The notes below the pieces were generated by a model. That model was not told the origin of the DNA. It saw only the letters and a list, made by a program, of their open reading frames with translations, and did not search any database. Shown here in pieces: positions 4,581 to 59,373 of a stretch of 64,000 nt of DNA. Both the position numbers and the translations under genes were made by a program. Every line of letters starts with the position of its first letter. Positions within the stretch are counted from its first letter, which is position 1. This DNA is from Cloacimonetes bacterium SCGC AAA252-N17 (GTDB lineage: Bacteria > Cloacimonadota > Cloacimonadia > JGIOTU-2): assembly GCA_000404785.1 (NCBI GenBank), contig ASNI01000006.1:3037-67036 (forward strand), given 5' to 3'.

Positions 4581-4600
4581 AAGAAAGATAAAAAGAAAAA

Positions 4601-6163: not shown

Positions 6164-6207
6164 GATTTTTGCGGAATGACATTAGTGTTTCAAAAGACCA
6201 AAGACTT

Positions 6208-6279
6208 AAAGCAACCCAGTTCACCCCGTTAAATCCCTTCGGGATCTCGATATATCGGGATATTTAACAGGGTGAAATA
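6208..6279. repeat. 72-bp palindromic repeat, copy 2
   Basis: Direct repeat of 5388-5459 at an offset of 820 bp. Confidence 0.9.
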
Positions 6280-6294
6280 AAAGAAAAAGAAGAT

Positions 6295-9607: not shown

Positions 9608-9742
9608 AAAGATAAAAGGGAAGACAAAAGATAAAAGAAAAAAGACGAAAGATTAAAAGCAGAAAGTAGAAATTGTAAAGCAGAAAGTTTACCCCGTGAA
9701 ATCTTTTGTTACTATTTCACCGGGGTAGAAAGCAGAAAGGTA
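9608..9742 (+). repeat. AAAGAT/GCAGAAA heptamer array with an inserted ccccgtgaaat..atttcaccgggg hairpin
   Basis: Repeat read directly from the sequence; same architecture as 1543-1617. Confidence 0.75.
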
Positions 9743-9860
9743 TAATATGATAGAAAAATTAGATATTGACGATCATATAAAGAATAATCCTTTATTATAT
9801 AAATCATTTTTTTAGCATTAGAAATTATCAAATTGTATAAATATTTAACTGAAGAAAAGC

Positions 9861-10262
9861 ATGGAATACAAGATTAAAGACGAAAGACAAAAGAGCAAAG
9901 AAAAGAAGATTAATCGTGATCTTTCAGAAAGACTTCTTAATTTCGTTGTAAAGACTATGCAATTTCTACGATCACTTCCACATAACAAAGAGTACGATGT
10001 CTTTAGGTATCAACTATCAAAATCATCTTCGTCCATAGGCGCCAACTACGAGGAATCTCAAGCATGCACTGAAAATGAATTCAAGCAGCGAATAGCCATC
10101 TGTCTTCGTGAAGCTCGTGAAACAAATTATTGGTACAGAGTAATTGATAAACTGGACATTGGTGATAGCGAACAAAGAAAATATTTATTACAAGAATCCT
10201 ATGAATTAAAGTTAATATTTGGATCAATATACTCCAAATGCTACAAGAAGGCAAAAATATGA
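9861..10262 (+). CDS. Four-helix-bundle protein (23S rRNA IVS protein/Avd-like family)
   Basis: QLSKSSSSIGANYEE, F...IAICLREARETNYW. Confidence 0.9.
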   Translation: MEYKIKDERQKSKEKKINRDLSERLLNFVVKTMQFLRSLPHNKEYDVFRYQLSKSSSSIGANYEESQACTENEFKQRIAICLREARETNYWYRVIDKLDIGDSEQRKYLLQESYELKLIFGSIYSKCYKKAKI

Positions 10263-11800
10263 ATAATAAAATTTTAATCTTTATTCTTTGCTCTTTAATC
10301 TTTTTTACTATAACTTTCTGCTCAAACACAGGACCTCAGACAGGAACATTATCCGGCACTATTAATTTAGAAGGTCAATCCGACCACTCCGGAATAATTA
10401 TAGGCATTTACAAACTTGCCGAGTTAGATCCCGACATCGTCGAAGCTAATCAGAAATGGCCCCACATTGGCGTAATAATTAATCAGATGACTGAATTCGA
10501 CCACCGCTTCGGCACATTAATTAAAACCGGAGAAACCGATGCATCCGGTTACTTTGAAATTAAAGACATCCCAACGGGTGTTTATAATGTAGTTGCAATA
10601 AAAGACTCTTTCGGTTTTCGTTATATTTACAATGTACAAATAAATGATGGAAATAATGAGCTTTCAGCAAAGAATAAAGACAAAAGATCAAAGATCAAAA
10701 GTGAAAATTCTACCGATGTCCTTAATCTTTCTTCTTTAGTCTTTGATCTTAATAATCGCACTAGCGATTTAACTCTTTTTCCCGAAACAACAATCTCCTC
10801 CGACATCTCCACCCCAACTACCTTTCTCTCCCACCATCATTACATAATTGAACAAGACATTATAGTTGATGACGAACTCATCATACAACCCGGTGCAGTT
10901 GTACGTTTGAACGAAGGCAAAGAAATAACCAGCTATGGTACCTTTAATGCAGTAGGAGAATATGAAAACTTCATCTGGTTTACCAAGAATGATGGATTTT
11001 CCGAAAACTTGAGTACAATAGAACCTGACTCAAATTATATTTGGGATAGAGTTACCCTAGAGCCATATTCACAAGCGCAGGTCCAATGGAGTAAATTCGA
11101 TTGTGCGAATATTGGATTGTTAAATCATGTGAATGGATTTGGGATTTCGGATTGTATTTTTAGTGCTAGTCAGTGTGGATTTAAAGCTGTGGATGTTGAT
11201 TCGATGTTTTGTAGTAATTTGTTGTGTGAAGCGATTACAAATGAAACTGAAGGTGGGATTTATTTTGTAAATTGTAATTCAGGTAAAATTAATAATAACC
11301 TGTTAGTAAAAAACTCTACAGGTATAAAAGTAAAGGATTTATCTAATCCCTTAATGAAGAATAATTACTTTACTCAAAATGAATTTGGTGCAGAATTATG
11401 GAGTAGTAATTCTTCTTTTATCAATAATGAATTTTCATACAATTCTAACGGTTTAAGGATTTGTGGAACCACTTCTCCCACAATATATCTTAATAACATT
11501 CAATCGGATATCGGAATATATATAGGATTTAACGATACCTATCCAAACGCAAATCCTGAAATTAATTTTAACAATTTAATCAATTGCGGCTATACGATTT
11601 ATGAAACGTTTTTTAATAGTAATGTTATAAATGCAGAGAATAACTATTTTGGCACTACTGATCCACTCATTATTGAAGAATTAATTCATGATAAAAATGA
11701 TCTATCATCAACGGCACCATATTATAACACTTATGGAATAATTAATTATATTCCATTTTTATTATCGGAATATCCAAATGCAGGAATACAGGATGAATAA
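10259..11800 (+). CDS. Secreted or lipoprotein with carboxypeptidase-regulatory-like domain and right-handed parallel beta-helix
   Basis: Signal peptide ending TFC; GTLSGTINLEG..G.YNVVA; repeated N..(I/F)..N..GI turns; C-terminal NAENNYFG. Confidence 0.65.
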   Translation: MNNKILIFILCSLIFFTITFCSNTGPQTGTLSGTINLEGQSDHSGIIIGIYKLAELDPDIVEANQKWPHIGVIINQMTEFDHRFGTLIKTGETDASGYFEIKDIPTGVYNVVAIKDSFGFRYIYNVQINDGNNELSAKNKDKRSKIKSENSTDVLNLSSLVFDLNNRTSDLTLFPETTISSDISTPTTFLSHHHYIIEQDIIVDDELIIQPGAVVRLNEGKEITSYGTFNAVGEYENFIWFTKNDGFSENLSTIEPDSNYIWDRVTLEPYSQAQVQWSKFDCANIGLLNHVNGFGISDCIFSASQCGFKAVDVDSMFCSNLLCEAITNETEGGIYFVNCNSGKINNNLLVKNSTGIKVKDLSNPLMKNNYFTQNEFGAELWSSNSSFINNEFSYNSNGLRICGTTSPTIYLNNIQSDIGIYIGFNDTYPNANPEINFNNLINCGYTIYETFFNSNVINAENNYFGTTDPLIIEELIHDKNDLSSTAPYYNTYGIINYIPFLLSEYPNAGIQDE

Positions 11801-46202: not shown

Positions 46203-46311
46203 TCTGTGGTATATAGAAAATTGGACTTTCTGGCTTGATGTTAAAATTATTTTTATGACAGTATTTAGCAGGCAATCTAAATTAAATGCGTTTTAATATA
46301 TTTTAGTTTGG

Positions 46312-46353
46312 GGGTTTAGGAGTTTAGAGGTTTAGAGGGTTAGAGGTTTAGAA
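46312..46353 (+). repeat. Octamer array (AGGTTTAG), left flank of a four-helix-bundle gene
   Basis: gggtttag gagtttag aggtttag agggttag aggtttag. Confidence 0.85.
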
Positions 46354-46716
46354 GTGCATACATATTCATTTGAAAAACTTTAAGTATGGAAATTAGCAAA
46401 AGATTTTGTTATTAAAATTTACAGGATAACAGAGAAATTTCCAAAATCAGAAAAATTTGGAATAGTAGATCAAATAAGACGTTCTTCAGTTTCTGTACCT
46501 ACCAATTTATCCGAGGGAAGTGGAAGGCAAACAGGAAGAGATAAAGCACATTTCACACAAATTGCTTATGGCAGCATAATGGAGTGCTTGAATCTATTAA
46601 TTATTTCTCGTGATTTGGAGTATATTTCTCAAGATGAATTAGATGATTTAAGATCTGATATCGAAAGAATTACAAAGAAACTTTCAAATTTACGCCTATC
46701 ACAACTAAACAACTAA
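46354..46716 (+). pseudogene. Four-helix-bundle protein with in-frame TAA at 46381-46383 (not in the ORF track)
   Basis: MHTYSFEKL*VWKLAK..FPKSEKFGIVDQIRRSSVSVPTNLSEGSGR..F.QIAYGSIME. Confidence 0.85.
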
Positions 46717-46719
46717 GAT

Positions 46720-46860
46720 AAGTTTAGAAGGTTAGGTGTGTAGAGTTTTATGTGTTTATTGGGTTAGAAGGTTATGGATTTTTTCTAAACTTCTAAACTT
46801 TTTTCCTAAACTTCTAAACTGTTTTTTCTAAACTTCTAAACTTTTTTTCTAAACTTCTAT
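46720..46860. repeat. Direct then inverted octamer arrays (GTTTAGAA / TTCTAAAC) forming a long potential hairpin
   Basis: agtttagaaggttagg.. followed by about seven ctaaact units. Confidence 0.85.
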
Positions 46861-46879: not shown

Positions 46880-48427
46880 ATGAAAAAACTCCTCTTAACA
46901 ATAATAGTCTTAACAACCCTCACTACAATCTCCTTCGCAGACTATATCATCTCACCCAACGATCCCGTCTATTCATTTCTCGAAACAGCTCAAAACTTAG
47001 GTTATACAGAACAGTTAATATCTGTCTATCCCCAATATCATGATAAGGTCATTAATGACCTTACTCAATTGCTATCATTGGATATTGCAGTAAGTTATAA
47101 GAAACTTGCTGAATATCATTTAAAAAGAATTTCGCTTATCACTTCTTATGGATTTGAGTCAGCACTCTATCCGATAAAGAAAATTCCACAATCCTTCATC
47201 TCGATATTCAAGAATCGATCTCCGAAAAAAAGATTATTCCGATTTAAAAAAGGAGATACTGATCTATTTCTTTCCGGAATCATTGGAATAGATTATGATT
47301 TATTGAAATCAGATGCTGAAGATAAGCATCGTTTGCTAAAATATTATGGATTAGAGTTTGGTGGTAACATATCAGAGACTATTGGAATATTCTCTATATT
47401 CCGCAAAGGGCATTATACCTGCGATGCCTATTTTACTCGAGCGGATTCTGTACAACTCATTTCTGATAATTGGGAAAATCCTGAAAAGGTAGAGATTCAG
47501 ACAGAGTGCTTTTTGCAAACAAATTTATTAGATTTTTCTATTGGATATGGAAATTTTCAGTTTGGTAATGCCATAACTTCTTCAATTATTCTCAACAAGG
47601 ATATTTCACCTTTTCCTTATATAAAAGTTTCAAAACAGTTCGGTGATTTCTCATACATATCTTTATATAGCCAATTAGTTCCGGATAGTCTGAAAGATGA
47701 AATAGAATATGAATCCAAATCCTATGCGCTACAAATGCTATCTTATCAAACCGATAAATTGTTCTTAGCCATTGGTGAATGCTCAATTTATGGTGACAGG
47801 AATTTTGATATTTCCTATTCCACACCCTTAATTATGTACAAGCTGGTAGATTTTGCAAATCAATCCAGAGATAATGTAAATGCTTTTTTAATCACAAATT
47901 ATTCTCCATTCAATGGTTTTCTTATTTATAATAATTTATTTATTGATGATGTAAAGTTGAGTAGATTAACAACTAATGAATATTTGTCAGGATTCGCTGA
48001 ACAGCTTGGAGTAAGTTATTCATTTGAAAAGTTACCATTAAATATCACTTTTGAAGGAACCGCTATTGGACCGAGAACATATTGCCACCGCAGGGATTTA
48101 GTTTACAGTCATAGAAATCAATTACTCGGTTATCCGAATGGCTCTAATCAACTTAATCTTGCGATTCAGGCTCAATATTTATTACCAGGTCTGGAATGTA
48201 AAGTGCTATATTCAAATATGCAGCAGGGCAGTATTAGTAATGATCCTTTCAAGCCGCAGCCCAATACTAAATTCTTAGCTGGTGAAATCAGCAGGACACA
48301 AAATATTGTTGCTTCGATAAATTATAGTTTTACACCGGAATTGAAGTTTCATCTCAGATATGAATATGAGAATACAGATGATAAGGTGAAGAATTATGTT
48401 TATTCGGGAATTGAGTTGAAATATTAG
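46880..48427 (+). CDS. Outer-membrane beta-barrel, capsule assembly Wzi-like
   Basis: Signal peptide; DP.Y.FLE N-terminus; alternating aromatic strands; C-terminal ..GIELKY. Confidence 0.6.
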   Translation: MKKLLLTIIVLTTLTTISFADYIISPNDPVYSFLETAQNLGYTEQLISVYPQYHDKVINDLTQLLSLDIAVSYKKLAEYHLKRISLITSYGFESALYPIKKIPQSFISIFKNRSPKKRLFRFKKGDTDLFLSGIIGIDYDLLKSDAEDKHRLLKYYGLEFGGNISETIGIFSIFRKGHYTCDAYFTRADSVQLISDNWENPEKVEIQTECFLQTNLLDFSIGYGNFQFGNAITSSIILNKDISPFPYIKVSKQFGDFSYISLYSQLVPDSLKDEIEYESKSYALQMLSYQTDKLFLAIGECSIYGDRNFDISYSTPLIMYKLVDFANQSRDNVNAFLITNYSPFNGFLIYNNLFIDDVKLSRLTTNEYLSGFAEQLGVSYSFEKLPLNITFEGTAIGPRTYCHRRDLVYSHRNQLLGYPNGSNQLNLAIQAQYLLPGLECKVLYSNMQQGSISNDPFKPQPNTKFLAGEISRTQNIVASINYSFTPELKFHLRYEYENTDDKVKNYVYSGIELKY

Positions 48428-48520
48428 ATGGGGGAAACGTTGAGAGAAAGAGACGTTGTGAAGGAGAGACTGGGGGACTTGGTGAAGGGGAGTTTGGACT
48501 AATAGGCGGTAGGGTGATAA
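48428..48520 (+). repeat. G-rich octamer array (NNAGAGAC/NNGGTGAA), left flank
   Basis: gttgagag aaagagac gttgtgaa ggagagac tgggggac ttggtgaa. Confidence 0.7.
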
Positions 48521-48538
48521 GGCGAAAAATAGAGTATT

Positions 48539-48910
48539 ATGAAAATAAGAACGCATAAAGATCTTGTAGTTTATCAATTAGCTTTTGATGCAGCAATGGA
48601 AATATTTGAAATTACAAAATTATTTCCTAAAGAAGAACGATATTCTTTAGTTGATCAAATGCGCAGAAGTTCTCGTTCTGTAGCAGCAAATATTGCAGAA
48701 GCTTTTAGGAAAAGAAAGTATCCAAAAGCTTTTATATCAAAATTATCAGATAGCGAATCTGAAGCTGCAGAAACTCAGGTGTGGTTAGAATTTACTTTGA
48801 AATGCAGATATATTGATGAAATTACATTTGATGATTTGTTTAATAATTATGATCATATAATTGGCAAACTTGTAAATATGAGTAGAGAGCCACAGAATTG
48901 GAGCATATGA
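48539..48910 (+). CDS. Four-helix-bundle protein
   Basis: FPKEERYSLVDQMRRSSRSVAANIAEAFRKR..KLSDSESEAAETQVW. Confidence 0.92.
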   Translation: MKIRTHKDLVVYQLAFDAAMEIFEITKLFPKEERYSLVDQMRRSSRSVAANIAEAFRKRKYPKAFISKLSDSESEAAETQVWLEFTLKCRYIDEITFDDLFNNYDHIIGKLVNMSREPQNWSI

Positions 48911-48927
48911 AATTTCAAGGCAGTCAA

Positions 48928-48966
48928 TGATTTCTCACATTCTCTCTATCTCTAAGTCTCTTATTC
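48928..48966 (-). repeat. Inverted octamer array, right flank
   Basis: atttctca cattctct ctatctct aagtctct. Confidence 0.65.
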
Positions 48967-49026
48967 GTTTAAATATCTTTGAACAATGTAAATAATCTAA
49001 TAAACAAAATAAATTGAGGTTTACAT

Positions 49027-50565
49027 ATGATGAAAGCATCCCTCTCGCCCAACGGAACGGAATATAAACTTCCAACCGAATCTGAATCAGCGAATGAATT
49101 AAAAGAACTCAAGAAAATAACTGCCGAGCAACGAAAATTAGGACGCAAGATCGTAGCTGTGCAGGGGATGGGTTTTGTCGGCTGCGTGATGGCAGCAGTT
49201 GTTGCAGATGCAGTTGATGAAAAAGGAGAACCGCTCTATTTTGTGCATGGTCAGCAAAGAGCTTCTCTGCGTTCCTTTTGGAAAGTGCCGGTTATCAATC
49301 GAGGAATCCCACCGGTAAGTTCCTCCGATGTAGAAGTGCCAAAAATATTTCATAGAACTGTAGTTGAAAAGAAAACACTGAGAGCAACATGGCTCAATTA
49401 TGCATATGAGGTGGCAGATATTGTGGTTGTAGATATTCAGTTGGATGCTACGAAACCTACTTTTGGAGATGCCTCTCAGGGCTATTGTGATATGTCTGCC
49501 TTTAGAGATGGCATGAAAAATCTTGGTATGCATATTTCTCCTGAATGTCTTATTCTTGTAGAAACAACTGTTCCGCCCGGAACATGCGAGAATGTCGTTA
49601 AGCCACTTATTGAAGAGGAATTTAATAAACGTGGAATTGACATTGCAAAGAATCCTCCTTTGATCGCACATTCTTATGAGCGAGTTATGCCCGGTGCAAA
49701 GTATGTAAGCTCAATCCGAGATTTCTGGCGTGTATTTTCGGGAGTGAATGAAAAGAGTAAGTATATTGCTCGAGAGTTTTTAAACAATATTCTCGATACT
49801 GAGAAATATCCCCTTACTGAATTGGATAACACAAATGCATCCGAACTTTCCAAGGTTATGGAAAATTCATATCGTGCAACGAATATTGCACTTACACTTG
49901 AATGGGCAAAGTGTGCGGAAAAGATAGGTGTCGATATTCATAAAGTACGTGCTGCGATCCGCAAACGTAAAGGTACTCACGATAATTTATTGCGTCCAAG
50001 TTTAGGGGTGGGTGGATATTGTCTGACGAAAGATCCTGTTCTGGCAAACTGGGCAATGGGTGCTATTTTTAATATTGATGATAAGCTGAAAATTGCAATA
50101 AATTCTGTTGATATTAATGATACAATGCCATTACATACTATCGATCTTATCAAAGAAGAATATCCTGATTTGAAGGATGTAAAGATAGCTGTTTTGGGTG
50201 TTTCTTATTTAGAAAATTTAGGAGACACGAGACATTCACCGTCCGAAACTCTGATAAAATTCTTGAATGAATATTGGGCAATTGTCAAAACCCACGATCC
50301 TTATGTGGAATATTGGGCAGAAATGGAGAATGTGCCGATTGAAAAATCACTATCCGATGCGCTAAAAGATGCAGATGTGGTCATTTTTGCTGTAGGTCAT
50401 ACGCAATACCTCGAGCTCGACCCGGATGAGGTTGTTGCGATGACAGGGAAAAAACCTCTTATTATAGACTGCTCAAATTTTCTTAATGATGAGAAGATAA
50501 AGGCATATTTGAGAGCAGGATGTAAAGTCAAAGGTGTTGGGAAGGGACATATTGGGAAGCTGTGA
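49027..50565 (+). CDS. Nucleotide-sugar dehydrogenase (UDP-HexNAc 6-dehydrogenase family)
   Basis: GMGFVG, ETTVPPGT, SYERVMPG, K..ENSYRA.NIA, GVGGYCL.KDP. Confidence 0.88.
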   Translation: MMKASLSPNGTEYKLPTESESANELKELKKITAEQRKLGRKIVAVQGMGFVGCVMAAVVADAVDEKGEPLYFVHGQQRASLRSFWKVPVINRGIPPVSSSDVEVPKIFHRTVVEKKTLRATWLNYAYEVADIVVVDIQLDATKPTFGDASQGYCDMSAFRDGMKNLGMHISPECLILVETTVPPGTCENVVKPLIEEEFNKRGIDIAKNPPLIAHSYERVMPGAKYVSSIRDFWRVFSGVNEKSKYIAREFLNNILDTEKYPLTELDNTNASELSKVMENSYRATNIALTLEWAKCAEKIGVDIHKVRAAIRKRKGTHDNLLRPSLGVGGYCLTKDPVLANWAMGAIFNIDDKLKIAINSVDINDTMPLHTIDLIKEEYPDLKDVKIAVLGVSYLENLGDTRHSPSETLIKFLNEYWAIVKTHDPYVEYWAEMENVPIEKSLSDALKDADVVIFAVGHTQYLELDPDEVVAMTGKKPLIIDCSNFLNDEKIKAYLRAGCKVKGVGKGHIGKL

Positions 50566-50642
50566 CAGGGCGACGGGGTGACTTGGTGAGGGAGAGACTG
50601 AGAGAGACAGGCTGACTGGGTGAGATTGAGATAAGATGAGAA
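50563..50642 (+). repeat. Octamer array (NNNGTGAC), left flank
   Basis: gtgacagg gcgacggg gtgacttg gtgaggga gagactga. Confidence 0.75.
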
Positions 50643-50666: not shown

Positions 50667-51038
50667 ATGAAAATAAGAGATCATAATGAATTGGATGTTT
50701 TTAATTTGTCTTTTGATAATGCGATGAAAATATTTGAACTTTCTAAGAATTTCCCAAAAGAAGAAAAGTTTTCATTAACTGATCAGATTAGAAGAGCTTC
50801 GAGATCAGTTGCTACGAATATTGCTGAAGCATTTAGAAAAAGACGTTATCCTAAAGCGTTTGTAGCAAAACTTTCAGATTCTGAAGCAGAAGCTGCAGAA
50901 ACTCAGGTCTGGTTAAAATTTTCCTATGAATGCAGCTATATAGACAAACAGGTTTTCAACGAATTAATCCAAAGTTATGATTTTGTTCTGGGGAAATTGG
51001 TAAATATGAGCCGGCAACCAGAGCAATGGACAACGTAA
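50667..51038 (+). CDS. Four-helix-bundle protein, close paralog of 48539-48910
   Basis: FPKEEKFSLTDQIRRASRSVATNIAEAFRKRRYPKAF. Confidence 0.92.
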   Translation: MKIRDHNELDVFNLSFDNAMKIFELSKNFPKEEKFSLTDQIRRASRSVATNIAEAFRKRRYPKAFVAKLSDSEAEAAETQVWLKFSYECSYIDKQVFNELIQSYDFVLGKLVNMSRQPEQWTT

Positions 51039-51061
51039 TATCCATCAGACTTTTTATAAAT

Positions 51062-51142
51062 CTCAAAGTCACTTGGTCACTTAGTCACAAAGTCCCCAAA
51101 TCACATAGTCCCAAAGTCTCTATGTCATAAAGTTACTAAATC
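51062..51142 (-). repeat. Inverted octamer array (GTCACNNN), right flank, about 10 units
   Basis: ctcaaagt cacttggt cacttagt cacaaagt ccccaaat cacatagt cccaaagt ctctatgt cataaagt. Confidence 0.85.
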
Positions 51143-51192
51143 ATTTAATACCACGAAAATACAATCCTTAATCCATTATACTTAACAAGCAT

Positions 51193-52218
51193 ATGATAAT
51201 CTTATACTTTTTTTCCTTCTTCCTTATTTTATTTGGAGTTTCATTATTCATTTCTTTTAAGAAAAAAAACTCAATTCAGCATTCTTACTCCATCATAATT
51301 CCTTGCAGAAACGAGGAGCACACCCTTCCAGTTCTTCTACACTCATTAGAAAATCTCAATTATCCGGAAAAATTATTTGAAGTGATCCTTATTGATGATG
51401 CTTCGAGTGACAGTACTTCTAAAATAATTCAGGAATTCTGTAAAAATAGATCCAATTATACAGCAGTGCATATTGCCAATAAAAGTGAAGAGTATAAAGG
51501 CAAGAAGTATGCTCTTAAGAAGGGAATTGAAAAAGCACAATTTGAAAATCTTCTTTTTACTGATGCTGATTGCATGATGCCTTCGAACTGGATAGACTCG
51601 TTTAATAAATTCATTTGCAAAAATGTTGGAATGGTAGTAGGATACTCACCCGAAAAAGGAGTTTCTTCTTTTCGGAGATTTTCACAGATCATTACTGCAG
51701 ATTTTTATTGTGCCACGATAAATCTTGGAGTTCCCTTCAGTAACAATGGGAGGAATCTCTATATTAATAAAAAAGCTTACGAGCAGGTTGATGGATTCGA
51801 GAAGATAAAGAGCTTCACATGCGGAGAGGATAAGTTATTACTTAATCTCATTAAAAATACCCAGTTTAAAATCATATATAATTCTGACTGCAAGGTTTAT
51901 ACTCATCCTCAAATAAACGATTTTGCCAATCAGCAAAAACGCAGATACGGTCAATTTCCTTTATCGTCTCCGCTTTACAAAGTAGTTTCATTATTTATTC
52001 TTTTATTCTTTCTTTATATGCCATTCCATGTAATTTTTTATAAAGATTTGCTTGGTTTGTCGATATACTATGTTTCATTCTTGATTTTCTGGATTTCAGG
52101 TTTGATCAAACACAGGGAGTCCTTTCATTTCTTTGATCTGTTTTATATAATATTTTATCCATATTATTTGATTTATTATTCTCTGTTAGGGATGTTCAGC
52201 AAGTGGACGTGGAAATAA
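51193..52218 (+). CDS. Glycosyltransferase family 2 with membrane anchors
   Basis: SIIIPCRNEE, IDDASSD, GKKYAL, FTDADC, Q.KRR. Confidence 0.9.
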   Translation: MIILYFFSFFLILFGVSLFISFKKKNSIQHSYSIIIPCRNEEHTLPVLLHSLENLNYPEKLFEVILIDDASSDSTSKIIQEFCKNRSNYTAVHIANKSEEYKGKKYALKKGIEKAQFENLLFTDADCMMPSNWIDSFNKFICKNVGMVVGYSPEKGVSSFRRFSQIITADFYCATINLGVPFSNNGRNLYINKKAYEQVDGFEKIKSFTCGEDKLLLNLIKNTQFKIIYNSDCKVYTHPQINDFANQQKRRYGQFPLSSPLYKVVSLFILLFFLYMPFHVIFYKDLLGLSIYYVSFLIFWISGLIKHRESFHFFDLFYIIFYPYYLIYYSLLGMFSKWTWK

Positions 52219-52224
52219 TAGTTG

Positions 52225-52465
52225 ATTGTCACTCTGATCAGCCAGTGGGCGGAGAAGAGTCTCCCAAAAGTAATTGTCATTCTGGAGCACATTCGCTTTG
52301 CTCAGTATAAGCCATGTGCTGAGCGTAGCGAATGCATCCGCGAAGAATCTCCCGAAAGTAATTGTCATTCTGGAGCGCAGCGAAGAATCTCCCGAAAGCG
52401 TTAATTTATCCTCTTTTGAGATCCTTCGTCAGGAATTAAAATTCCTTCCTCGAGGATGACAAGAA
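52225..52465. repeat. REP-like doublet array upstream of the GIY-YIG gene
   Basis: Three TTGTCA(C/T)TCTG..GAAGA(A/G)TCTC units, then inverted GAGATCCTTC..AGGATGACAA. Confidence 0.88.
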
Positions 52466-52479
52466 AGTAGTAAAAAAAG

Positions 52480-52773
52480 ATGCCACTCACCAAAACCTAT
52501 TATGTGTATATAATGACTAATAACTCAAAGACTCTTTACACAGGTGTAACAAATAATCTGGAAAGAAGAGTCTTTGAGCATAAACATGGTACTGTTAGAG
52601 GTTTCACAAAAAAGTATAATATTGATCAACTTGTGCATTATGAATCCTGTCCTGACATAAATGGAGCAATAAATAGAGAAAAGCAAATCAAAGGTTGGCT
52701 TAGAATCAAAAAGATCGAGTTAATTGAAAGTGTTAATCCAGAATGGAAGGACCTTAGTTATGGCTGGTTTTAG
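52480..52773 (+). CDS. Small GIY-YIG nuclease
   Basis: YYVYIMTN..LYTGVTNNLERRVFEHK..FTKKY..LVHYE..AINREKQIKGW. Confidence 0.93.
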   Translation: MPLTKTYYVYIMTNNSKTLYTGVTNNLERRVFEHKHGTVRGFTKKYNIDQLVHYESCPDINGAINREKQIKGWLRIKKIELIESVNPEWKDLSYGWF

Positions 52774-52796
52774 TGATTAATAGGTTAAAAAGCAAG

Positions 52797-53245
52797 ATTG
52801 TCATTCTGGAGGAGCACATTCGCTTTGCTCAGTATAAACTCCGCGAAGAATCTGGCAAAAACATTGATCTATCCTCTTGGGGAGATCCTTCGTCACCCCA
52901 ATGAATTGGGGATTCCTCGAGGATGACAAGGAAGGGGAAATTGTCATTCTGGTGAATGTCAGTTTCAACTGACTGAAGAAGAATCTCCCGAAAGTAATTG
53001 TCATCCCAGTTAAATAAAAAAAAGATTTAACGGGATAAATTCTGGAGCACTTTCGCTTTGTTCAGTATAAGCCATGTGCTGAGCGTAGCGAATGCATCCG
53101 CGAAGAATCTCCCGAAAACATTAATTTATCCTCTTGGGAGATCCTTTCCGTCTTCATTTCAGTCTTCGCTACACTACGCCCAGACATGACGCCGTGACAG
53201 GCGGTCACTTCACTCAGACAGCTGGCTGATGACAAAGTAATGTGT
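52797..53245. repeat. REP-like doublet array downstream of the GIY-YIG gene
   Basis: Same unit pair repeated twice, with different nested hairpins in the loops. Confidence 0.88.
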
Positions 53246-53262
53246 ATGACAATCAAAATTAA

Positions 53263-54156
53263 ATGAAATTATCAAACTCATCCAAAACCATAATTTTTGT
53301 CCTTAAGATAATCATAACAGCACTAATACTCTATTTCATTTTCAAAAAAATTCAATTTGACCAATTAATTGCTGATTTCCTGACAATAAAATTATGGGTA
53401 ATACTATTAATTATTATCACAACAATTATTAAACTCTTTATTCAGGCATATAATTGGGGAAAATATCTCAAAATGAATTCTGATTACACACCTAAGAAAT
53501 ATGAAGTGTTGAAATCATATTTTGTCGGACTGGCACTACGATTTGTTGGTCCTGGCGGTATCGGTGTCGTTGGCAAAATATATTTTGTGAATAACAAAAA
53601 GAAAGCCACATTAGCTTCAATAGGCGTTGAGCGAATATTCCTTACATGGAAAAATATTTTTTTTGCAGCTTTTGCAGCGATTTTCTTTTTCACCAACATT
53701 AATATGATCATAAAGGTAGCGGTCTTGATCGCAGTGATCTTTCTTCCTTTTATAATTTATCTTTTTTCTTTCTTAACCAAAAATGAGAATATCCAGTCAT
53801 ACTCATTAAATTATTTAAAGAAAACACCCGAAATAATGCTTGCACAGATAATTTTTGTGTTTATAACATTCTACCAATATTTTATTCTTCTGAGAAATTT
53901 CGTTGATATTAGTTTTTTTAAAATTATGATCTCTGTCCCACTCATTCATATCTCTCACATTATTCCCCTTTCATTTAATGGATTTGGGCTTCGTGAAACC
54001 TTTGCAATCGAGGTTTTCTCGAAGTATGGAATAAGTCCTGAACTTGCGGTCACTGCTACGTTCTTAATATTTTTCTTTAATTCGGTTGTTCCGGCAATAA
54101 TCGGTGTATATTACATTTTCAGGATAAAACATAGCAAAGAAGCGATAAGAATATGA
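53263..54156 (+). CDS. Lysylphosphatidylglycerol-synthase TM-region (UPF0104) membrane protein
   Basis: K..I..LILYFIF, P.G.G..GK, ER, PLSFNGFGLRE. Confidence 0.8.
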   Translation: MKLSNSSKTIIFVLKIIITALILYFIFKKIQFDQLIADFLTIKLWVILLIIITTIIKLFIQAYNWGKYLKMNSDYTPKKYEVLKSYFVGLALRFVGPGGIGVVGKIYFVNNKKKATLASIGVERIFLTWKNIFFAAFAAIFFFTNINMIIKVAVLIAVIFLPFIIYLFSFLTKNENIQSYSLNYLKKTPEIMLAQIIFVFITFYQYFILLRNFVDISFFKIMISVPLIHISHIIPLSFNGFGLRETFAIEVFSKYGISPELAVTATFLIFFFNSVVPAIIGVYYIFRIKHSKEAIRI

Positions 54157-54543
54157 AAAAAGTAATACTCTTACTTATTGTCCTGTTGCTCGCTAATCTA
54201 ATTTATGCAGATTTTACCATTCCCCTTGATGATGATGTTTACGAGTATCTGCCCCGATAAATCGGGGGAAATATTGGGGAAAATCCCATCAATTGCTGTA
54301 TATCCATAATATTTTGATCGTATAGAAAATTATCTTAACAATATTGCTGATTACGAGAATATTGCGAGAAGCTAGTAAGAATCTGAGTTCCTCTCTGGAG
54401 AATTCACTCGTACTCAAAGAATAAGTGGGAAAGTATCCTTCTATTTGAACCGGCATCTCAAAGCGAAAGTTCAATACACTCTGATTAATACGAATAATAA
54501 AACTACAAATTATCTCTTTTCCGGACTGGAATTCCAATTATAA
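54153..54543 (+). pseudogene. Collapsed remnant of a Wzi-like paralog of 46880-48427
   Basis: MKKVILL..ADFTIPLDDDVYEYL* at the start and EFLSGEFTRTQ..NYLFSGLEFQL* at the end match both ends of the 46880 protein. Confidence 0.7.
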
Positions 54544-54635
54544 AGCGATAGAATTATAAAACAAATTAAGAAAAACTTGACACATCCTTACCATAAAAAC
54601 AAGAAACATCTAAACATATTCTGAAAGGAGAACGT

Positions 54636-54905
54636 ATGGGAAAGAATATAATTAAGATCATATCTTTTTTATTGATTGCATTTTTTGTGCTTTCAGCGTG
54701 TTGTCATAAACCATCTCCGCCTATTTCCCAAGCAGAGCTGGTTGACCTTCGCGCGAAAGTGGAACAATTCGAAGCACAAGTTAGTGCACAAAGCGCAGAG
54801 ATTGAAGCACTCGAGAAGGAATTGCAACAAAAAAAAGTTGAACTTCAAAATCTTCAGGATTACGAACAACAGCTAAAAGACGACGGTTTTTTAGGGGAGG
54901 AGTAA
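54636..54905 (+). CDS. Small coiled-coil lipoprotein
   Basis: Lipobox-like LSACC; heptad-rich C-terminus. Confidence 0.7.
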   Translation: MGKNIIKIISFLLIAFFVLSACCHKPSPPISQAELVDLRAKVEQFEAQVSAQSAEIEALEKELQQKKVELQNLQDYEQQLKDDGFLGEE

Positions 54906-54906
54906 C

Positions 54907-55791
54907 ATGAAAAAGTATATCGCACTATTCGTTTTATTGATGATCCTATCTACTTTTCTGCAGGCGGAAGTCCGCTATTTGACAGAAGAGGAATACAAAG
55001 ACCTCTCCAAAGAAGAAACTCTCAAGTACTGGGAAGCTCTGGAAAATGAGCTGATGATGCTGCAGGTTCGCCAGGCAAATGCCGGTTCGCAAGTTACTGA
55101 GAATGAATTGAAAATTGTAGCTCTGGGTGAAGAAATCGCTCTTCTTGATCTGGAATATGATGTGATCTACACAAGAATCATGAATTCTATCGGAACTGTT
55201 TCGCATAGTGAACTTGTTGATTTCGAACAGAAATTGAATGAGATCAAGAACAAGCTTGATTACTATGATCAACTTCCTAATTCCGAACTGTATAAAAGTA
55301 ATCAGGAAATCAAGAATTTCATTGCTCAGTATGAAAGTCTGAAGGGTGAGGATATAGCAAAAGTCCCTCGGTTCCAGCAGGATTTTGCAGAGATTGATAG
55401 CAGAATTGATATGCTTCAGGAAAATATGTATCCTTATGGTGAGTACTATGAGGATGAATATACTGTGGTTAAAGGTGATTATTTAGTGAAGATCTCCGGC
55501 TATGAGCATATTTATAATGATCCTGCAAAGTGGGGGATCATATATCGTGCCAATAGAGATCAGATCAAAGATCCTGACTTGATCTATCCCAATCAGGTTT
55601 TCAAAATACCTCGTGGACTTCCTTCAAGTTGGAAGGTGTATGGAGGTGAATGCCTTTGGACAATTTCAAGCTATCCTGAGATTTACAATGATCCATTCCA
55701 ATGGCCCAAAATTTACCGAGCTAATACAGATCAGATCAAAGATCCTGATTTGATTTATCCAAACCAGATTCTTAGAATACCCCGAGACTGA
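54907..55791 (+). CDS. Secreted coiled-coil protein with two C-terminal LysM domains
   Basis: YTVVKGDYL.KIS..W..IYRANRDQIKDPDLIYPNQ pattern twice. Confidence 0.88.
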   Translation: MKKYIALFVLLMILSTFLQAEVRYLTEEEYKDLSKEETLKYWEALENELMMLQVRQANAGSQVTENELKIVALGEEIALLDLEYDVIYTRIMNSIGTVSHSELVDFEQKLNEIKNKLDYYDQLPNSELYKSNQEIKNFIAQYESLKGEDIAKVPRFQQDFAEIDSRIDMLQENMYPYGEYYEDEYTVVKGDYLVKISGYEHIYNDPAKWGIIYRANRDQIKDPDLIYPNQVFKIPRGLPSSWKVYGGECLWTISSYPEIYNDPFQWPKIYRANTDQIKDPDLIYPNQILRIPRD

Positions 55792-55804
55792 TATACATTC
55801 TTAG

Positions 55805-55848
55805 AAGCCCCTTATCTCTTTGTTCGGAATAAGGGGCTTTTTTATTTT
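55805..55848 (+). terminator. Rho-independent terminator
   Basis: aagccccttat-loop-ataaggggctt followed by a T tract, 14 bp after the LysM stop. Confidence 0.8.
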
Positions 55849-55869
55849 CAGTAAAATAACCTTGCGAAT

Positions 55870-56170
55870 GGTGAGCTAAAACTCACTTCTCAAGGATAAC
55901 AAGGAAGGGGGATTGTCATTCTGATCCGCCAGCTGGCTAAGAAAGAGAATCTCCCCAACAAGGATTGTCATTCTGGAATCCGATTTATCGGGTGAAGAAT
56001 CTCCCAAGAACATTAATTCATCCTTTTGGGAGATCCTTCGTCACCCCCAATGAATTGGGGATTCCTCGAGGATGACAATGAAGGGGAGATTGTCATTCTG
56101 GTGAATGTCAGTTTCAACTGACTGAAGAAGAGTCTCCCAAGATATTAATCTATCGTTATTGGATATCCTT
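55870..56170. repeat. Orphan REP-like doublet array (same family as around the GIY-YIG gene)
   Basis: gagatccttcgtcacccc(c)aatgaattggggattcctcgaggatgacaa and ttgtcattctggtgaatgtcagtttcaactgactgaagaa shared with 52878-52990. Confidence 0.88.
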
Positions 56171-56248
56171 TCAGTCTTCATTTCTCACTCATCCGTCTTC
56201 ATTTCTCACTCATCACTCTTCACTCTTTGCTCTTCACCCATTTATTGT

Positions 56249-56276
56249 TTGACAAAAGAATTGATGATTTTATATA
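56249..56276 (+). promoter_or_regulatory. Putative sigma70 promoter of the pgpH-ybeY operon
   Basis: TTGACA-16 bp-TATATA, 37 bp before ATG 56314. Confidence 0.45.
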
Positions 56277-56313
56277 TACATATCAAAATTCTCGAGTAAA
56301 TATTTAATAAGAC

Positions 56314-58443
56314 ATGAAAACATATATTCCAGCAAAAAGAATATCGCAGGCATTTATTGCGGTCGGTATCACCACAATACTCATCTTTCTTGTTAATTTC
56401 TTCTTTACAAGAGAAAAAATTATTATTAGGAAATCCACTTTCAATATCGGGCAGATTTCCAATCAGACTATCGTAGCTCCCTTTAATTTCCATATTTATG
56501 AAGATCCTGAAATTCTCAAAGACAAAAAAGCAAAAGCAGAAGAACGTGTTTTGCCCAAGTATCAATTTTCTGATGATGTCACTTTTGACGCACAGTCTCA
56601 TATAAATGATTTCTACAGCTTATTGGATAAGACATTTATACAGGATTCCCTTAATTCTGTAAGATTATTAAGTTTAAATCAAGACGGATACAGCTTAAAC
56701 GAACAGGAGTTGAAATTTCTTGAGAACAAAGATGCTCGCGAACAGCTCTTTGAATTTCTGCTTGTGCAGGTGAAAAGTGTTCTTGGTGTTGGAATCCTCA
56801 AAAGCGAACCCAATAATGAAAAAATCACTCTAATTGAGGGTAATACTGAAAAAGTAGTTTCTATAAAAGAGCTTTTTACAAAAGAAACTGCGATCAATTA
56901 TATTCTTGATCAACGCACTCCAAGGTTCGGTTCTGACGGGTGGAAAAGCATCATTGAGAAAATACTCAATAAAATCTTACAGCCCAATGTCATATATGAT
57001 AGAGAAGAAACTGATGTTGCAAAGAAAAGAGCCAGCGAAAGTGTTCCTCAGATTCTCGGTGAAGTCCTCAAAAATGAACTGATCGTGCCGGAGCATCAGA
57101 AAATAACTGGGGATATGCTACGAAAACTGAATGCTCTTGAACAAGCTGAGCAAAAAAGGATCGTTACAGAACAGGCAGGAAAACAGGTTCTTTCTCACAT
57201 TGCAGAATTTTTCTATATCTTCATTGTGCTTTCTCTATTCATCATATTGTCATATTTTATGTATCCTGAACTCCTTAGGACTGTTTCTTTCTTCAGAACC
57301 TTTCTATTTTTTACAGCATGTATTGCACTTTTACTCATTCTGATAACAAATCTCACTACTTGGTCAGCTTATATTCTTCCCTTTGGTTTGCCCATTATTC
57401 TTCTTGCATTTCTGATTGATGTTCCCGCTGCAATGATCTTTGGGTTTGTAAATTACTTTCTGATAGCTGGTTTGCTAGACTGGAAGATCGTTCCCTCTAT
57501 GATCATTTGCCTGTCCGGTATGAGCGCTGTGCTTCCCCTTGAGAATCCACGTAGCCGAAGAGATTTCTATAATGCTGCGTTCTATATGCTGATCTTTTTC
57601 ATCGCACTGGTCTTTATTTTTGGCGCAATACAGCACGCTAAGATTCTTACAATTCTGAATGATATCAAATGGGGTGTTCTGGGGGTATTAATTTCTCTCG
57701 TTGGTAGTATGACACTTCTTGCTCCGATCGAGCAGCGTTTGCCGGTGATCACAAATATCCATCTGCTCGAGTTGGCTGATTTCAGTAATCCTTTATTAAA
57801 ATTACTCACTGAAGCTGCGTCTGGAACATATCATCATTGCATCATTGTAGGAAATCTTGCAGCAGCAGCCGCAAAAGCCATAGAGGCAAATCCTATCCTT
57901 GCTCGTGTGGGAAGCTATTATCACGATATCGGAAAGACCAAAAATCCCGAATACTTTATTGAAAATACTACTGAAAAAGAAAGTATGCACAATCAATTAA
58001 CTGCAACTCAGAGTGCGCAGATAGTAAAGCGCCATGTTGAGGACGGAGTTAAGCTTGCTCGAGAGCGCCACATTCCTAAAGCAATAATTGATATTATGCA
58101 ACAGCATCATGGCACATCACAGATCAGCTTTTTTCTGAATGAAGCGCTTGAACAGGAAGAAGAGATCGATGAGAAAGATTTCTATTATGATGGTCCCAAA
58201 CCTCAAACAAAAGAAGCTGCTATCGTTATGATCGCTGATATTATAGAGTCCACTACCAAATCTCTGCATGAGCCGACTGTTGAAGAAATCGAAAGTGTTG
58301 TGAAAAAAACCATAAAGCGATTGATCGATACTGACCAGCTTTCAGAGAGTGGAATTTCTCTGAAGGAATTAAAAACTTTACAGGAAAGTATGATGCCAAT
58401 TTTACTTGGTATCTATCAAAAACGTATTGCATATCCGGAATAA
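56314..58443 (+). CDS. pgpH: 7TM-HD phosphohydrolase (PgpH-like cyclic-di-AMP phosphodiesterase)
   Basis: Extracellular 7TMR-HDED region, TM block, GTYHHC..YYHDIGK.KNPEYFIEN..HHGT..GPKPQTKEAAIVMIAD; adjacent to ybeY. Confidence 0.8.
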   Translation: MKTYIPAKRISQAFIAVGITTILIFLVNFFFTREKIIIRKSTFNIGQISNQTIVAPFNFHIYEDPEILKDKKAKAEERVLPKYQFSDDVTFDAQSHINDFYSLLDKTFIQDSLNSVRLLSLNQDGYSLNEQELKFLENKDAREQLFEFLLVQVKSVLGVGILKSEPNNEKITLIEGNTEKVVSIKELFTKETAINYILDQRTPRFGSDGWKSIIEKILNKILQPNVIYDREETDVAKKRASESVPQILGEVLKNELIVPEHQKITGDMLRKLNALEQAEQKRIVTEQAGKQVLSHIAEFFYIFIVLSLFIILSYFMYPELLRTVSFFRTFLFFTACIALLLILITNLTTWSAYILPFGLPIILLAFLIDVPAAMIFGFVNYFLIAGLLDWKIVPSMIICLSGMSAVLPLENPRSRRDFYNAAFYMLIFFIALVFIFGAIQHAKILTILNDIKWGVLGVLISLVGSMTLLAPIEQRLPVITNIHLLELADFSNPLLKLLTEAASGTYHHCIIVGNLAAAAAKAIEANPILARVGSYYHDIGKTKNPEYFIENTTEKESMHNQLTATQSAQIVKRHVEDGVKLARERHIPKAIIDIMQQHHGTSQISFFLNEALEQEEEIDEKDFYYDGPKPQTKEAAIVMIADIIESTTKSLHEPTVEEIESVVKKTIKRLIDTDQLSESGISLKELKTLQESMMPILLGIYQKRIAYPE

Positions 58444-58887
58444 ATGGAAGAAAATAATCAACAAATTATCAATGAAACTGACGCCGAGATAGACCAACGG
58501 CGCATACAAAAACTCATAACGCATATTTTTCAGAGTGAAGGATTACCCACTGAAACAATTCTAAATATTGTCTTTACTGATAATGCTACAATTCATGAAC
58601 TCAATAAGAAGTTCCTTGACCGTGACTGTCCAACAGATGTGCTTTCCTTTAATGTGCATACCGAGTATTTACCCGGCGAATTACCAATTCTTGGTGATGT
58701 ATACATCTCAGCAGAAGAAGCAAAAAATCAGGCGGAAAGTTATCTAGTAACATTTCAGGATGAACTTGAACGGCTTGTTACGCATGGGATTCTCCATCTC
58801 ATTGGATATGAGCATGATGATCCCGAACAGCAAGAGAAGATGAAAGCTTTGACCGAACAATACCTTGAGTTATCTAATGATAAATAA
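58444..58887 (+). CDS. ybeY: rRNA maturation endoribonuclease YbeY
   Basis: LNKKFL.RD.PTDVLSF, LGDVYIS, THGILHLIGYEH. Confidence 0.95.
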   Translation: MEENNQQIINETDAEIDQRRIQKLITHIFQSEGLPTETILNIVFTDNATIHELNKKFLDRDCPTDVLSFNVHTEYLPGELPILGDVYISAEEAKNQAESYLVTFQDELERLVTHGILHLIGYEHDDPEQQEKMKALTEQYLELSNDK

Positions 58888-58908
58888 GATTTAGGTATAA
58901 ATAGAAAA

Positions 58909-59352
58909 TTGAACATGAAAGAGTTAATTAAAACCACAGAGTTCACAGAGGGCACAGAGAAATTAGAGAGGGATCCGTTTACCGGAAAGATTATTGGCTG
59001 TGCAATAGAGGTACATCGCACTCTTGGACCTGGATTACTTGAATCGACTTATCAACAATGTTTAGCTCGAAAATTAGCAATTAATAAAATAAAATTTTCT
59101 TTAGAACATCCTTTACCGGTAGAGTATAAAGGCGTTCGTTTAGATTGTGGGTATCGTATTGATGTTCTTGTTGAAAGCGAAGGTGTGCCTTGTCGTCTTC
59201 TTATCCTTGAATTGAAATCAGTGGAAAAGATACAAGGAATTCATAGAGCTCAACTTCTCACGTATATGAAACTTTCAAATATTAAAACAGGTTTGTTAAT
59301 TAACTTTAATGTAAAGAGATTGAAAGATGGTATTGAAAGATTTAAATTATAA
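58909..59352 (+). CDS. GxxExxY protein (PD-(D/E)XK nuclease-like)
   Basis: IIGCAIEVHRTLGPGLLESTY, YRID..ELKSV, QLLTYMKL..GLLINFN. Confidence 0.93.
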   Translation: MNMKELIKTTEFTEGTEKLERDPFTGKIIGCAIEVHRTLGPGLLESTYQQCLARKLAINKIKFSLEHPLPVEYKGVRLDCGYRIDVLVESEGVPCRLLILELKSVEKIQGIHRAQLLTYMKLSNIKTGLLINFNVKRLKDGIERFKL

Positions 59353-59373
59353 ATCTCTGTGTTCTCTGTGGTT
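58932..59373. repeat. Inverted CACAGAG arrays bracketing the GxxExxY gene
   Basis: aaccacagagttcacagagggcacagaga (58932-58960) versus tctctgtgttctctgtggtt (59354-59373). Confidence 0.85.

Follow-up and report, generated by a model that had tools for sequence, protein, structure and literature searches.

How do small genes of unrelated families, each bracketed by inverted repeats, come to sit at the junctions between housekeeping genes of a single bacterial genome? The question is raised by a 64,000-nucleotide stretch of Candidatus Cloacimonadota DNA (Cloacimonetes bacterium SCGC AAA252-N17, GenBank contig ASNI01000006.1, positions 3,037 to 67,036; hereafter the window), with a G+C content of 24-39% when read in 2-kb windows. 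Between 46 and 61 kb, every gene lies on the + strand, and the housekeeping and envelope genes found there (UDP-sugar dehydrogenase, GT2 glycosyltransferase, LPG-synthase-TM, LysM lipoprotein, 7TM-HD, YbeY, and CorC/GldE-like) are interspersed with small genes of three unrelated families, namely four-helix, GIY-YIG, and GxxExxY. The whole window contains four four-helix genes (PF05635), one GIY-YIG gene, and one GxxExxY/PD-(D/E)XK gene, all at gene junctions and on the + strand, with inverted repeats on both sides and in the orientation of their neighbors (cf. Table 1). We assign a probability of roughly 0.55 to the reading that minimal selfish modules of at least three independent kinds (four when relatives are included) occupy the region, each composed of one small gene between its own repeat arms and accompanied by gene-less copies, in which the protein would be a specificity factor and not cargo.

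An earlier, sequence-only reading of this stretch had described such genes as cargo of minimal elements that lack classical transposases, each with a cognate repeat, and possibly moved by a shared trans-acting mobilizer. The architecture itself was borne out by profile matches, by repeat searches, and by a survey of family members, in which the small gene was co-oriented in 111 of 134 loci where both flanking genes point the same way (p = 2.5e-15; 40:8, 32:6, and 39:9 when split). Pfam and NCBIfam scans likewise revealed no transposase domain in 49-61 kb, as had been anticipated, and the small genes yielded only GIY-YIG, PDDEXK_3, and 23S_rRNA_IVP, with no HUH/Y1 (TnpA-like) transposase among them. 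All results given below come from comparison of sequences: filled and empty sites were compared in nine related Cloacimonadota loci (L001-L009), and flanks were surveyed in 240 loci, 80 per family, from species-representative genomes of many phyla, for which the taxonomy of metagenome-assembled genomes (MAGs) may be imperfect.

Protein families and their flanking repeats

In the survey, every protein family was accompanied across phyla by a flank type of its own; the type of flank thus belongs to the protein family and is no peculiarity of this genome. In GxxExxY loci, the heptamer variant followed the nearest neighbor of the protein in 55 of 66 cases, where 41% would be expected and none of 1000 shuffles exceeded 63%, and this agreement included pairs from different phyla. 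The two arms also co-varied (49 double-change cells versus 23.3 +/- 3.6, with 0 of 500 shuffles as high), and the genes of the elements are under purifying selection, with dN/dS values of 0.04-0.16 (0.11-0.16 for GxxExxY and 0.04 for GIY-YIG, the latter between the window and a homolog in contig L090). This selection and the lineage-matched repeats, together with the published behavior of Ssn homologs described below, which cut beside their own hairpin repeat (PMC11893778), speak against the term "cargo" used in the sequence-only reading. Its assignment of a cognate repeat to each gene stood as far as the type of flank is concerned, whereas the unit sequence of the four-helix repeats differed from copy to copy.

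The GxxExxY gene scored 135.5 bits against TIGR04256 (cut-off 35) and 131 bits against PF13366 (cut-off 22), and in 42 sequences of this family the residues E32, D83, E99, and K101 as well as the G40xxE43xxY46 motif were invariant. Its arms contain a 19-nt inverted repeat (58932-58950 and 59355-59373) that is 89% complementary, the termini of the element pair in both minimum free energy (MFE) and centroid folds, and CACAGAGNNCACAGAG gave 3 matches versus 0.12 expected. About 65 of 78 loci, belonging to at least 10 phyla, had a significant inverted repeat built like this one; per arm there are three units of roughly 9 nt, with ACCAC..../....GTGGT outermost, and the units occur as CACAGAG, CACGAAG, CACGGAG, CGCAGAG, or CATGAAG. 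The 9-nt period was measured by a regular-expression census, the arms being too short and the spacers too variable for autocorrelation. A compact element spans 420-450 bp, and its inverted repeat extends outward as TTT[C/A]-ACCAC...GTGGT-[G/T]AAA (41 loci). A fixed target duplication was considered for this family and rejected, as no direct repeat was found at the ends in 41 loci. Solo CACAGAG hairpins were observed beside GxxExxY genes (32 of them in 16 of 80 loci, versus 0 in 160 control loci) and also dispersed over at least 120 metagenome contigs, with no gene within 1 kb in 52 of the 54 determinable cases. The AlphaFold2 model of the protein was poor (predicted local distance difference test, pLDDT, 47.5), and sequence and profile searches of the PDB gave no match. 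The family has at least 8000 relatives in the database; none was found in phages, and plasmid copies were found on 8 large plasmids or chromids only, therefore no obvious vector is apparent. GxxExxY proteins 75-80% identical to the Cloacimonadota copy were encoded on four contigs of 18-44 kb (L012, L013, L014, and L015) labelled Verrucomicrobiota, Victivallaceae, and Desulfobacteraceae; such identity is far above expectation between phyla and implies either horizontal transfer or mis-binned contigs.

The repeats beside the GIY-YIG gene resemble those of Ssn proteins, single-domain GIY-YIG proteins of about 94 aa that bind a flanking hairpin repeat (NTS/SRM) as single-stranded DNA (ssDNA), cut upstream, and do not act on duplex DNA or RNA (Chenal et al. 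2025, Nat Commun; PMC11893778). In the window, the modules have the form TTGTCATTCTGG...GAAGAATCTCCC or its reverse complement, with a 28-nt module TGTCATTCTGAGCG.AGCGAAGAATCTC, and ATTGTCATTCTG occurs 8 times in two clusters. Head and tail modules were limited to three clusters, at 6.4, 52.2-53.1, and 55.9-56.1 kb, the first of which (6433-6762) is, like the orphan cluster of Table 1, devoid of a GIY-YIG gene. The upstream cluster has one reverse module, whose head (52451-52462, -) points at the gene, and the first downstream head (52798-52809, +) also points inward, both with the GTCAT tag. Relatives of the gene numbered more than 586 and came from many phyla, the majority being flanked by this same module; most of the 80 surveyed loci carry TGTCATYCTGAGCG.AGCGAAGRATCTC and its complement, with heads that mostly face outward and sometimes inward as in the window. 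The nearest PDB relatives were UPF0213 proteins, with a weak match (5.7e-5). In a sister strain 99.7% identical to window positions 50786-55976 (L379, GCA_000404885.1), an IS110-family insertion sequence (IS; DEDD_Tnp_IS110 and Transposase_20, 320 aa) was found at 1447-2660 inside an SRM-like module head (attgtCATT-IS-CATTctgg); it occupies the junction that holds the GIY-YIG gene in the window, the gene being absent there, and the repeat head seems to be the target of this IS.

The four-helix elements consist of a purine-rich array with an 8-nt period upstream of the open reading frame (ORF) and its complement downstream. Tandem Repeats Finder (TRF) reported period-8 arrays around these genes at 46313-46352, 46783-46843, and 51064-51133, and the arms of element c pair in MFE and centroid RNA folds (z = -3.65). 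The repeat unit varies between copies (GGTTTAGA, GAGAGAC, GTGAC.., and AAGACAA), hence the family is characterized by its period of 8 nt and by the order of purine array and complement, whereas no single sequence is specific to it. Nearly all of the 80 surveyed four-helix loci had GnGA-core arrays with complementary arrays downstream, and a period of 8 was by far the commonest among arrays above threshold (24 of 29 upstream and 33 of 37 downstream). Relatives of gene c in the PDB were 2gsc (Xcc0516), described as a homopentamer (PMC4990558), and 2rld. The reading frame of four-helix gene a is interrupted by a TAA (46381-46383) ten codons past its GTG start (MHTYSFEKL*VWKLAKDF...), and the gene is probably a recent pseudogene, though the remainder matches PF05635 at 1.3e-35. 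In the single-cell assembly GCA_000397825.1 (L383, 3792-5846), gene c is a truncated version of 65 aa, fused with the DegT/FdtA genes in inverted orientation (in the window, these genes lie upstream); either a true inversion at the element or a chimera formed during amplification for the single-cell assembly could account for this.

Occupied and empty junctions

The comparison of related loci revealed sites that are filled in some genomes and empty in others. The YbeY/CorC junction contains a GxxExxY gene in the window and in L001, a degraded remnant in L002, and a spacer of only 5-10 nt in L003-L009. Between the window and L001, the synonymous divergence (dS) of the GxxExxY gene was 0.353, while that of the flanking YbeY and CorC genes was 0.058 and 0.045, and the left junctions of the two copies were unrelated; because of this dS excess and the unrelated junctions, we concluded that the copy had been replaced or re-acquired. 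The GT2/LPG-synthase junction measures about 20 nt in L006-L008, contains one or two repeat units in L002-L004, and in L001 has repeat units without the GIY-YIG gene (its neighboring 7TM-HD protein shows 98% amino acid identity). An 86%-identical GIY-YIG gene of the L002 genome (in contig L090) is found elsewhere, within a four-helix element. The LysM/7TM-HD junction is empty in more distant relatives: L003-L009 lack the orphan SRM-like cluster located there, a 99.7% identical strain has it with one unit less, and the orphan 7-nt-period array next to it is found also in L001 and L002 and is absent from L003-L009. Empty sites at three junctions, the dS excess, and the relocated GIY-YIG gene contradict the view that the genes are vertically inherited at fixed positions. 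The number of repeat units differed by whole units between near-identical strains, and such turnover fits acquisition by recombination.

At the dehydrogenase/GT2 junction, we found four different four-helix elements in the window, in L001/L002, in L003, and in L004, every one beginning at the dehydrogenase stop codon. In L002 one four-helix element overwrites the 5' part of another, and in L001 a second kind of GIY-YIG gene (4567-4848), which is not present in the window, is inserted within a four-helix ORF. The L003 element is readable only through its 5' array, as the record contains an N run at this junction (5853-6493). In L001, a second, truncated ribosome-binding site and the first ~42 codons of UDP-sugar dehydrogenase (2204-2330; 88.7% identical to the window gene) sit upstream of a four-helix element, and the complete gene restarts downstream (2781 onward); this arrangement reflects either recombination at the junction or duplication of a target of about 125 nt.

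Nesting of orphan repeats, which the sequence-only reading had also noted, was seen again in this analysis. In the window, a palindrome (cccagttaaat..atttaacggg) splits the GTCAT^TCTGG head of an SRM-like module at 52998-53046 (module 52998-53113), and other modules of this kind have internal palindromic inserts too. The clearest event concerns two strains otherwise near-identical to the window (L370, 3370-3436, and L374, same position), in which a palindrome of 66-67 nt interrupts the GxxExxY ORF; it adjoins TAAA, caused no target duplication, and shifts the reading frame to give a 162-aa product. Its terminal inverted repeat (TIR), (GTTTA)CCCCGTGAAAT, equals that of the second GIY-YIG gene, i.e., the one in the four-helix ORF of L001. 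In two filled/empty pairs, which concern the CCCCGTGAAAT family and not the three main ones, the insertion lies before TAAA or TAAG with 0-1 nt duplicated.

Several further features of the window were noted. Its first 10300 positions form a dense block of toxin-antitoxin-type genes, interleaved with small palindromes and one SRM-like cluster (6433-6762, mentioned above): HepT/nucleotidyltransferase pairs at 46-474, 3326-4137, and 5527-6163, AbiEii at 739-1446, PIN at 9190-9564, and a gene for an IS5-like DDE transposase at 1676-3058 (-). The palindromes around the toxin-antitoxin genes (TCCCGTTAAAT...ATTTAACTGGGA and CCCCGTGAAAT...ATTTCACAGGG) are members of the TIR family found beside the second GIY-YIG gene and occur singly (4398-4429, 5404-5452, 6224-6272, and 9692-9724) or in tandem arrays (3176-3289 and 4458-4569; period 38-40, about 2.9 copies); these arrays and the small palindromes in the SRM-like heads look like variants of the CCCCGTGAAAT family. 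The array at 53145-53255 looks, by inference from its sequence, like the 3' array of a four-helix-type element without its gene. The spacer after the LPG-synthase-TM gene (54157-54635) is about 300 bp longer than in L002-L008 and opens with a 35-codon ORF (MKKVILLLIVLLLANLIYADFTIPLDDDVYEYLPR) resembling the N terminus of the 515-aa protein encoded at 46880-48427; it is probably a gene remnant.

Table 1. Positions of the elements, arms, arrays, and insertion sites in the window
Feature	Position	Strand	Composition and support
GxxExxY / PD-(D/E)XK nuclease gene	58915-59352 (alternative start 58909)	+	TIGR04256 1e-39; PF13366 3e-38
GxxExxY left arm	58932-58959	+	ACCACAGAG tt CACAGAG gg CACAGAG; within 5' end of ORF
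GxxExxY right arm	59355-59373	+	CTCTGTG tt CTCTGTGGTT
Segment missing from YbeY/CorC junction of L003-L009	58868-59399	+	Junction alignment by eye; synteny table
Empty target site (ttaatg^taaagag) in GxxExxY ORF	59311^59312	+	Filled by 66-67-nt palindrome in L370, L374
GIY-YIG gene, single-domain, Ssn-like, 97 aa	52480-52773	+	PF01541 3.8e-14, residues 7-76; no other domain
Upstream SRM-like cluster	52222-52467	.	Forward modules (TTGTCATTCTGG...GAAGAATCTCCC) 52226-52265, 52274-52353, 52362-52393
Downstream SRM-like cluster	52792-53147	.	Forward heads 52798, 52941, 52998; reverse heads/tails 52880, 52918
Orphan SRM-like cluster, no GIY-YIG gene	55886-56140	.	Between LysM gene terminator and 7TM-HD gene
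Four-helix element a	46305-46859	+	GGTTTAGA array 46305-46355; ORF 46356-46716; TTCTAAAC arrays 46779-46859; PF05635 1.3e-35
Four-helix element b	48430-48970	+	Purine array 48430-48530; ORF 48539-48910; complementary array ~48925-48970; PF05635 1.4e-31
Four-helix element c, 5' array	50562-50641	+	Purine-rich, 8-nt period, GTGAC/GAGAC units; begins at UDP-sugar dehydrogenase stop codon
Four-helix gene c	50667-51038	+	S23p / 23S rRNA IVS protein family, related to Avd; TIGR02436 1.8e-27; PF05635 1e-29
Four-helix element c, 3' complementary array	51060-51149	+	CAAAGTCA x 8.8; TRF 51064-51133, period 8
Four-helix element d	9621-10303	+	AAGACAA arrays 9621-9666, 9876-9899; ORF 9861-10262; TTTAATC array 10273-10303; PF05635 8.9e-12
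Orphan 7-nt-period pyrimidine array	56160-56241	+	TTCACTC x 9.7; TRF 56170-56237
Orphan pyrimidine-rich array and short palindromes	53145-53255	+	Between SRM cluster and next gene; TRF 53145-53167

Possible mechanism and competing explanations

If the elements are indeed selfish modules, the GIY-YIG protein would be an Ssn-like nuclease and its repeat an SRM-like hairpin module. By analogy, the GxxExxY PD-(D/E)XK nuclease would recognize a hairpin with three 9-nt CACAGAG-type units per arm, ending with ACCAC/GTGGT, and the four-helix protein, a member of a pentamer-forming, Avd-like, non-catalytic family, would bind the 8-nt-period arrays; binding or cutting of the own repeat, published for the Ssn homologs only, may be common to all of them. 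[quoted passage not shown] Such elements would insert into intergenic junctions and into one another, be lost or replaced via recombination between repeats, and cross phylum boundaries. Movement might proceed through ssDNA cut by the encoded nuclease and be completed by host replication or repair, in a manner resembling IS200/IS605 or REPIN/RAYT, with recombination between copies and strains probably assisting. The observed insertion of CCCCGTGAAAT hairpins beside TRAA, without target duplication, fits such a single-strand, IS200/IS605-like route. The co-orientation with host genes could be explained by dependence on read-through transcription, because the elements have no evident promoter of their own.

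Several observations weigh against this reading. To our knowledge, no strand-transfer chemistry is ascribed to GIY-YIG, PD-(D/E)XK, or four-helix proteins, and the nucleases of the former two classes hydrolyze DNA; joining of strands is not known for them. The four-helix protein lacks a catalytic domain, and no transposition intermediate or activity was seen. The co-variation of the two arms could reflect the need for a stem alone, and the high cross-phylum identities depend on MAG taxonomy that is possibly contaminated. The published SRM motif, HGTCWYN(0-2)YYVSBRHN(0-5)WNVSBRGN(0-2)RNCYNB (PMC11893778), gave 0 matches in the window and matched 3 of the 80 GIY-YIG loci, no more than in controls. 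Target duplications had no fixed length (0-1 nt, about 12 nt in L001, and about 125 nt at L001 2204-2330), and the two longer ones look more like recombination junctions than products of a transposase. Finally, GxxExxY was present in all 9 listed contigs (24 read) that encode an identical YbeY, i.e., it is fixed in the species, which a domesticated gene would fit as well.

The last two points, along with the strong purifying selection and the variation by whole units between near-identical strains, favor the explanation that survives best among the alternatives: the elements could be domesticated repeat-binding systems that are not currently mobile and serve the host by way of their repeat families, e.g., in the control of recombination or DNA uptake or in transcript shaping, their presence and absence arising from loss, repeat recombination, and allele exchange among strains. 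A precedent exists in Neisseria, where Ssn and the NTS repeats modulate natural transformation and domestication was suggested by the authors (PMC11893778). We regard this explanation as unlikely, though it may hold for some copies. It is opposed by the occurrence of one gene lineage at non-orthologous sites, by insertions into the ORFs of other elements, by the differing four-helix genes at a single junction, by degraded copies (the GxxExxY remnant of L002 and the interrupted four-helix gene a), and by the dispersal of solo hairpins over thousands of unrelated contexts.

A second alternative, which appears improbable, places the function of the arms at the RNA level: as in intervening sequences (IVS) of 23S rRNA, they would form a double-stranded RNA stem from which RNase III releases the ORF, separating the cistrons, and selection would act on RNA pairing. 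These IVS elements have an ORF of the four-helix family, and RNase III cleaves the 28-bp stem that their ends form (PMC4990558); moreover, the elements of the window are co-oriented with operons, and their termini pair in predicted RNA folds. However, the mismatches in the arms showed no strand-specific G:U bias (45 versus 43, 22 versus 20, and 82 versus 88, with no sense-strand excess over antisense), therefore an explanation by RNA alone is unsupported. Furthermore, ssDNA is the substrate of the published Ssn proteins, which show no binding to RNA (PMC11893778), no rRNA was found in the window, the sampled loci with low ORF content also lie outside rRNA, and the RNA stem would account for the tolerance of the elements, a role that is plausible, and not for their spread.

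Still less credit can be given to the mobilizer suggested in the sequence-only reading, taken here to be one shared trans-acting factor that recognizes a common structural feature and moves passive cargo genes. One architecture and one type of site are indeed shared across the families, the families nest in each other, and the four-helix protein, being non-catalytic, would need outside help. Yet there is no terminal motif common to the three families, the flank type tracks its own protein family across phyla with the other families absent from the locus, the repeat variants (the heptamers) co-vary with the protein lineage, and no candidate was found nearby, the only transposases seen being the IS5-like one at 1676-3058 and that of the IS110-family IS in the sister strain. 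Integron-type gene cassettes and ordinary DDE-transposon MITEs are suggested by the small, promoterless, co-oriented ORFs, the hairpin-forming repeats, and the TIRs, but were rejected, like chance and assembly artifact, on anatomy and statistics: arms are present on both sides of the gene instead of a single attC after the ORF, the junction sequences read by eye (no scan was run) contain no RYYYAAC/GTTRRRY core sites, the insertions are single ones between housekeeping genes and not arrays beside an integrase, and there is neither a DDE transposase nor a target duplication of fixed length.

Known relatives and meaning

Among the closest parallels to the selfish-module reading is the Ssn/SRM system. 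Alike are the single-domain GIY-YIG protein of about 95 aa between oriented hairpin repeats of about 28 nt, the beginning (GTCATTC) and the end (GAATC) of the repeat, the gene-less intergenic clusters, and the distribution over many phyla. The authors who described this system called the NTS-ssnA-NTS layout "identical to" insertion sequences and drew a parallel with IS200/IS605 and REP/RAYT (PMC11893778). In contrast, the module of the window clade (TGTCATTCTGAGCG.AGCGAAGAATCTC) has another stem and lies outside the published degenerate motif. Because that motif gave no matches in the window, we did not file the repeat as a canonical SRM, and since it shares the NTS frame but not the stem or motif, we call it Ssn-like and not a proven member. 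The Ssn/SRM paper contains no filled and empty sites, gene relocation, or nesting, which the present analysis adds. The pairing of GIY-YIG and repeat is thus already published (2025), and what is new is a repeat variant outside the published motif together with direct evidence of turnover.

The four-helix elements are, in turn, an extension of a layout known from 23S rRNA, where IVS with an S23p ORF were described by Ralph & McClelland (1993, as cited in PMC4990558) and in Coxiella (PMC4990558). Both have a PF05635/TIGR02436 protein between terminal inverted repeats with a long stem, and the IVS are regarded as selfish and horizontally transferred. Unlike them, the window elements lie between protein genes of operons and not in helix 25/45 of 23S rRNA, their arms are long arrays with an 8-nt period and a unit that differs per copy, and they succeed one another at one junction.

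The elements share with REP/REPIN-RAYT and IS200/IS605 a gene between its own inverted hairpins, dispersed or clustered (BIME-like) solo hairpins, co-evolution of protein and repeat, and, to judge from two filled/empty pairs of the CCCCGTGAAAT family, apparently insertion without target duplication beside a short conserved sequence (TRAA); they differ in that their proteins are GIY-YIG, PD-(D/E)XK, or non-catalytic four-helix and not HUH/Y1. Free-standing homing endonuclease genes (Seg/Mob) are also small, co-oriented nuclease genes between conserved genes, present or absent among close relatives, but they have no flanking inverted repeats or solo copies and occupy one allelic site, whereas the window elements are spread over many unrelated junctions. 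MITEs of bacteria (Correia, RPE) resemble them as short, TIR-bounded palindromes inserting intergenically and into each other; known MITEs, however, derive from DDE-transposase IS and have target duplications of fixed length, neither of which is seen here.

We found no description of a GxxExxY-hairpin pairing or of the solo hairpins in the literature or in Rfam, where no family matched the window, the solo hairpins, or the low-ORF loci; the literature mentions of GxxExxY that we found were in passing, and none was found that connects four-helix or GxxExxY proteins with mobile elements in intergenic DNA. We tentatively propose that GxxExxY may be the nuclease partner of a so far unrecognized and very widespread family of 60-70-nt hairpins composed of 9-nt CACAGAG-type units, a PD-(D/E)XK counterpart of Ssn/SRM and RAYT/REP, that S23p may be the partner that binds the 8-nt arrays, and that both, with Ssn, may form one general class of transposase-free, single-gene, hairpin-bounded mobile elements, which would rely on a site-specific nuclease or binding protein together with replication and repair by the host.

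If this is true, three very large families of small "hypothetical" proteins, present in thousands of genomes (the Ssn-like GIY-YIG clade and the S23p four-helix family are about as widespread as GxxExxY), would gain a common logic, each having a repeat family of its own. Should GxxExxY cut beside a hairpin of 9-nt units, it would join Ssn as a second family of small nucleases programmed by sequence, the flanks (CACAGAG, CACGAAG, CGCAGAG, etc.) could tell what it recognizes, and a new REP-like repeat with its partner would be added to those known. The ORF of the rRNA intervening sequence, unexplained since 1993, would receive a testable role that would explain its purpose. Finally, operon junctions in uncultured phyla would be marked as hot spots of element invasion and succession, which is of relevance for annotation and for the reading of strain-level variation in metagenomes.

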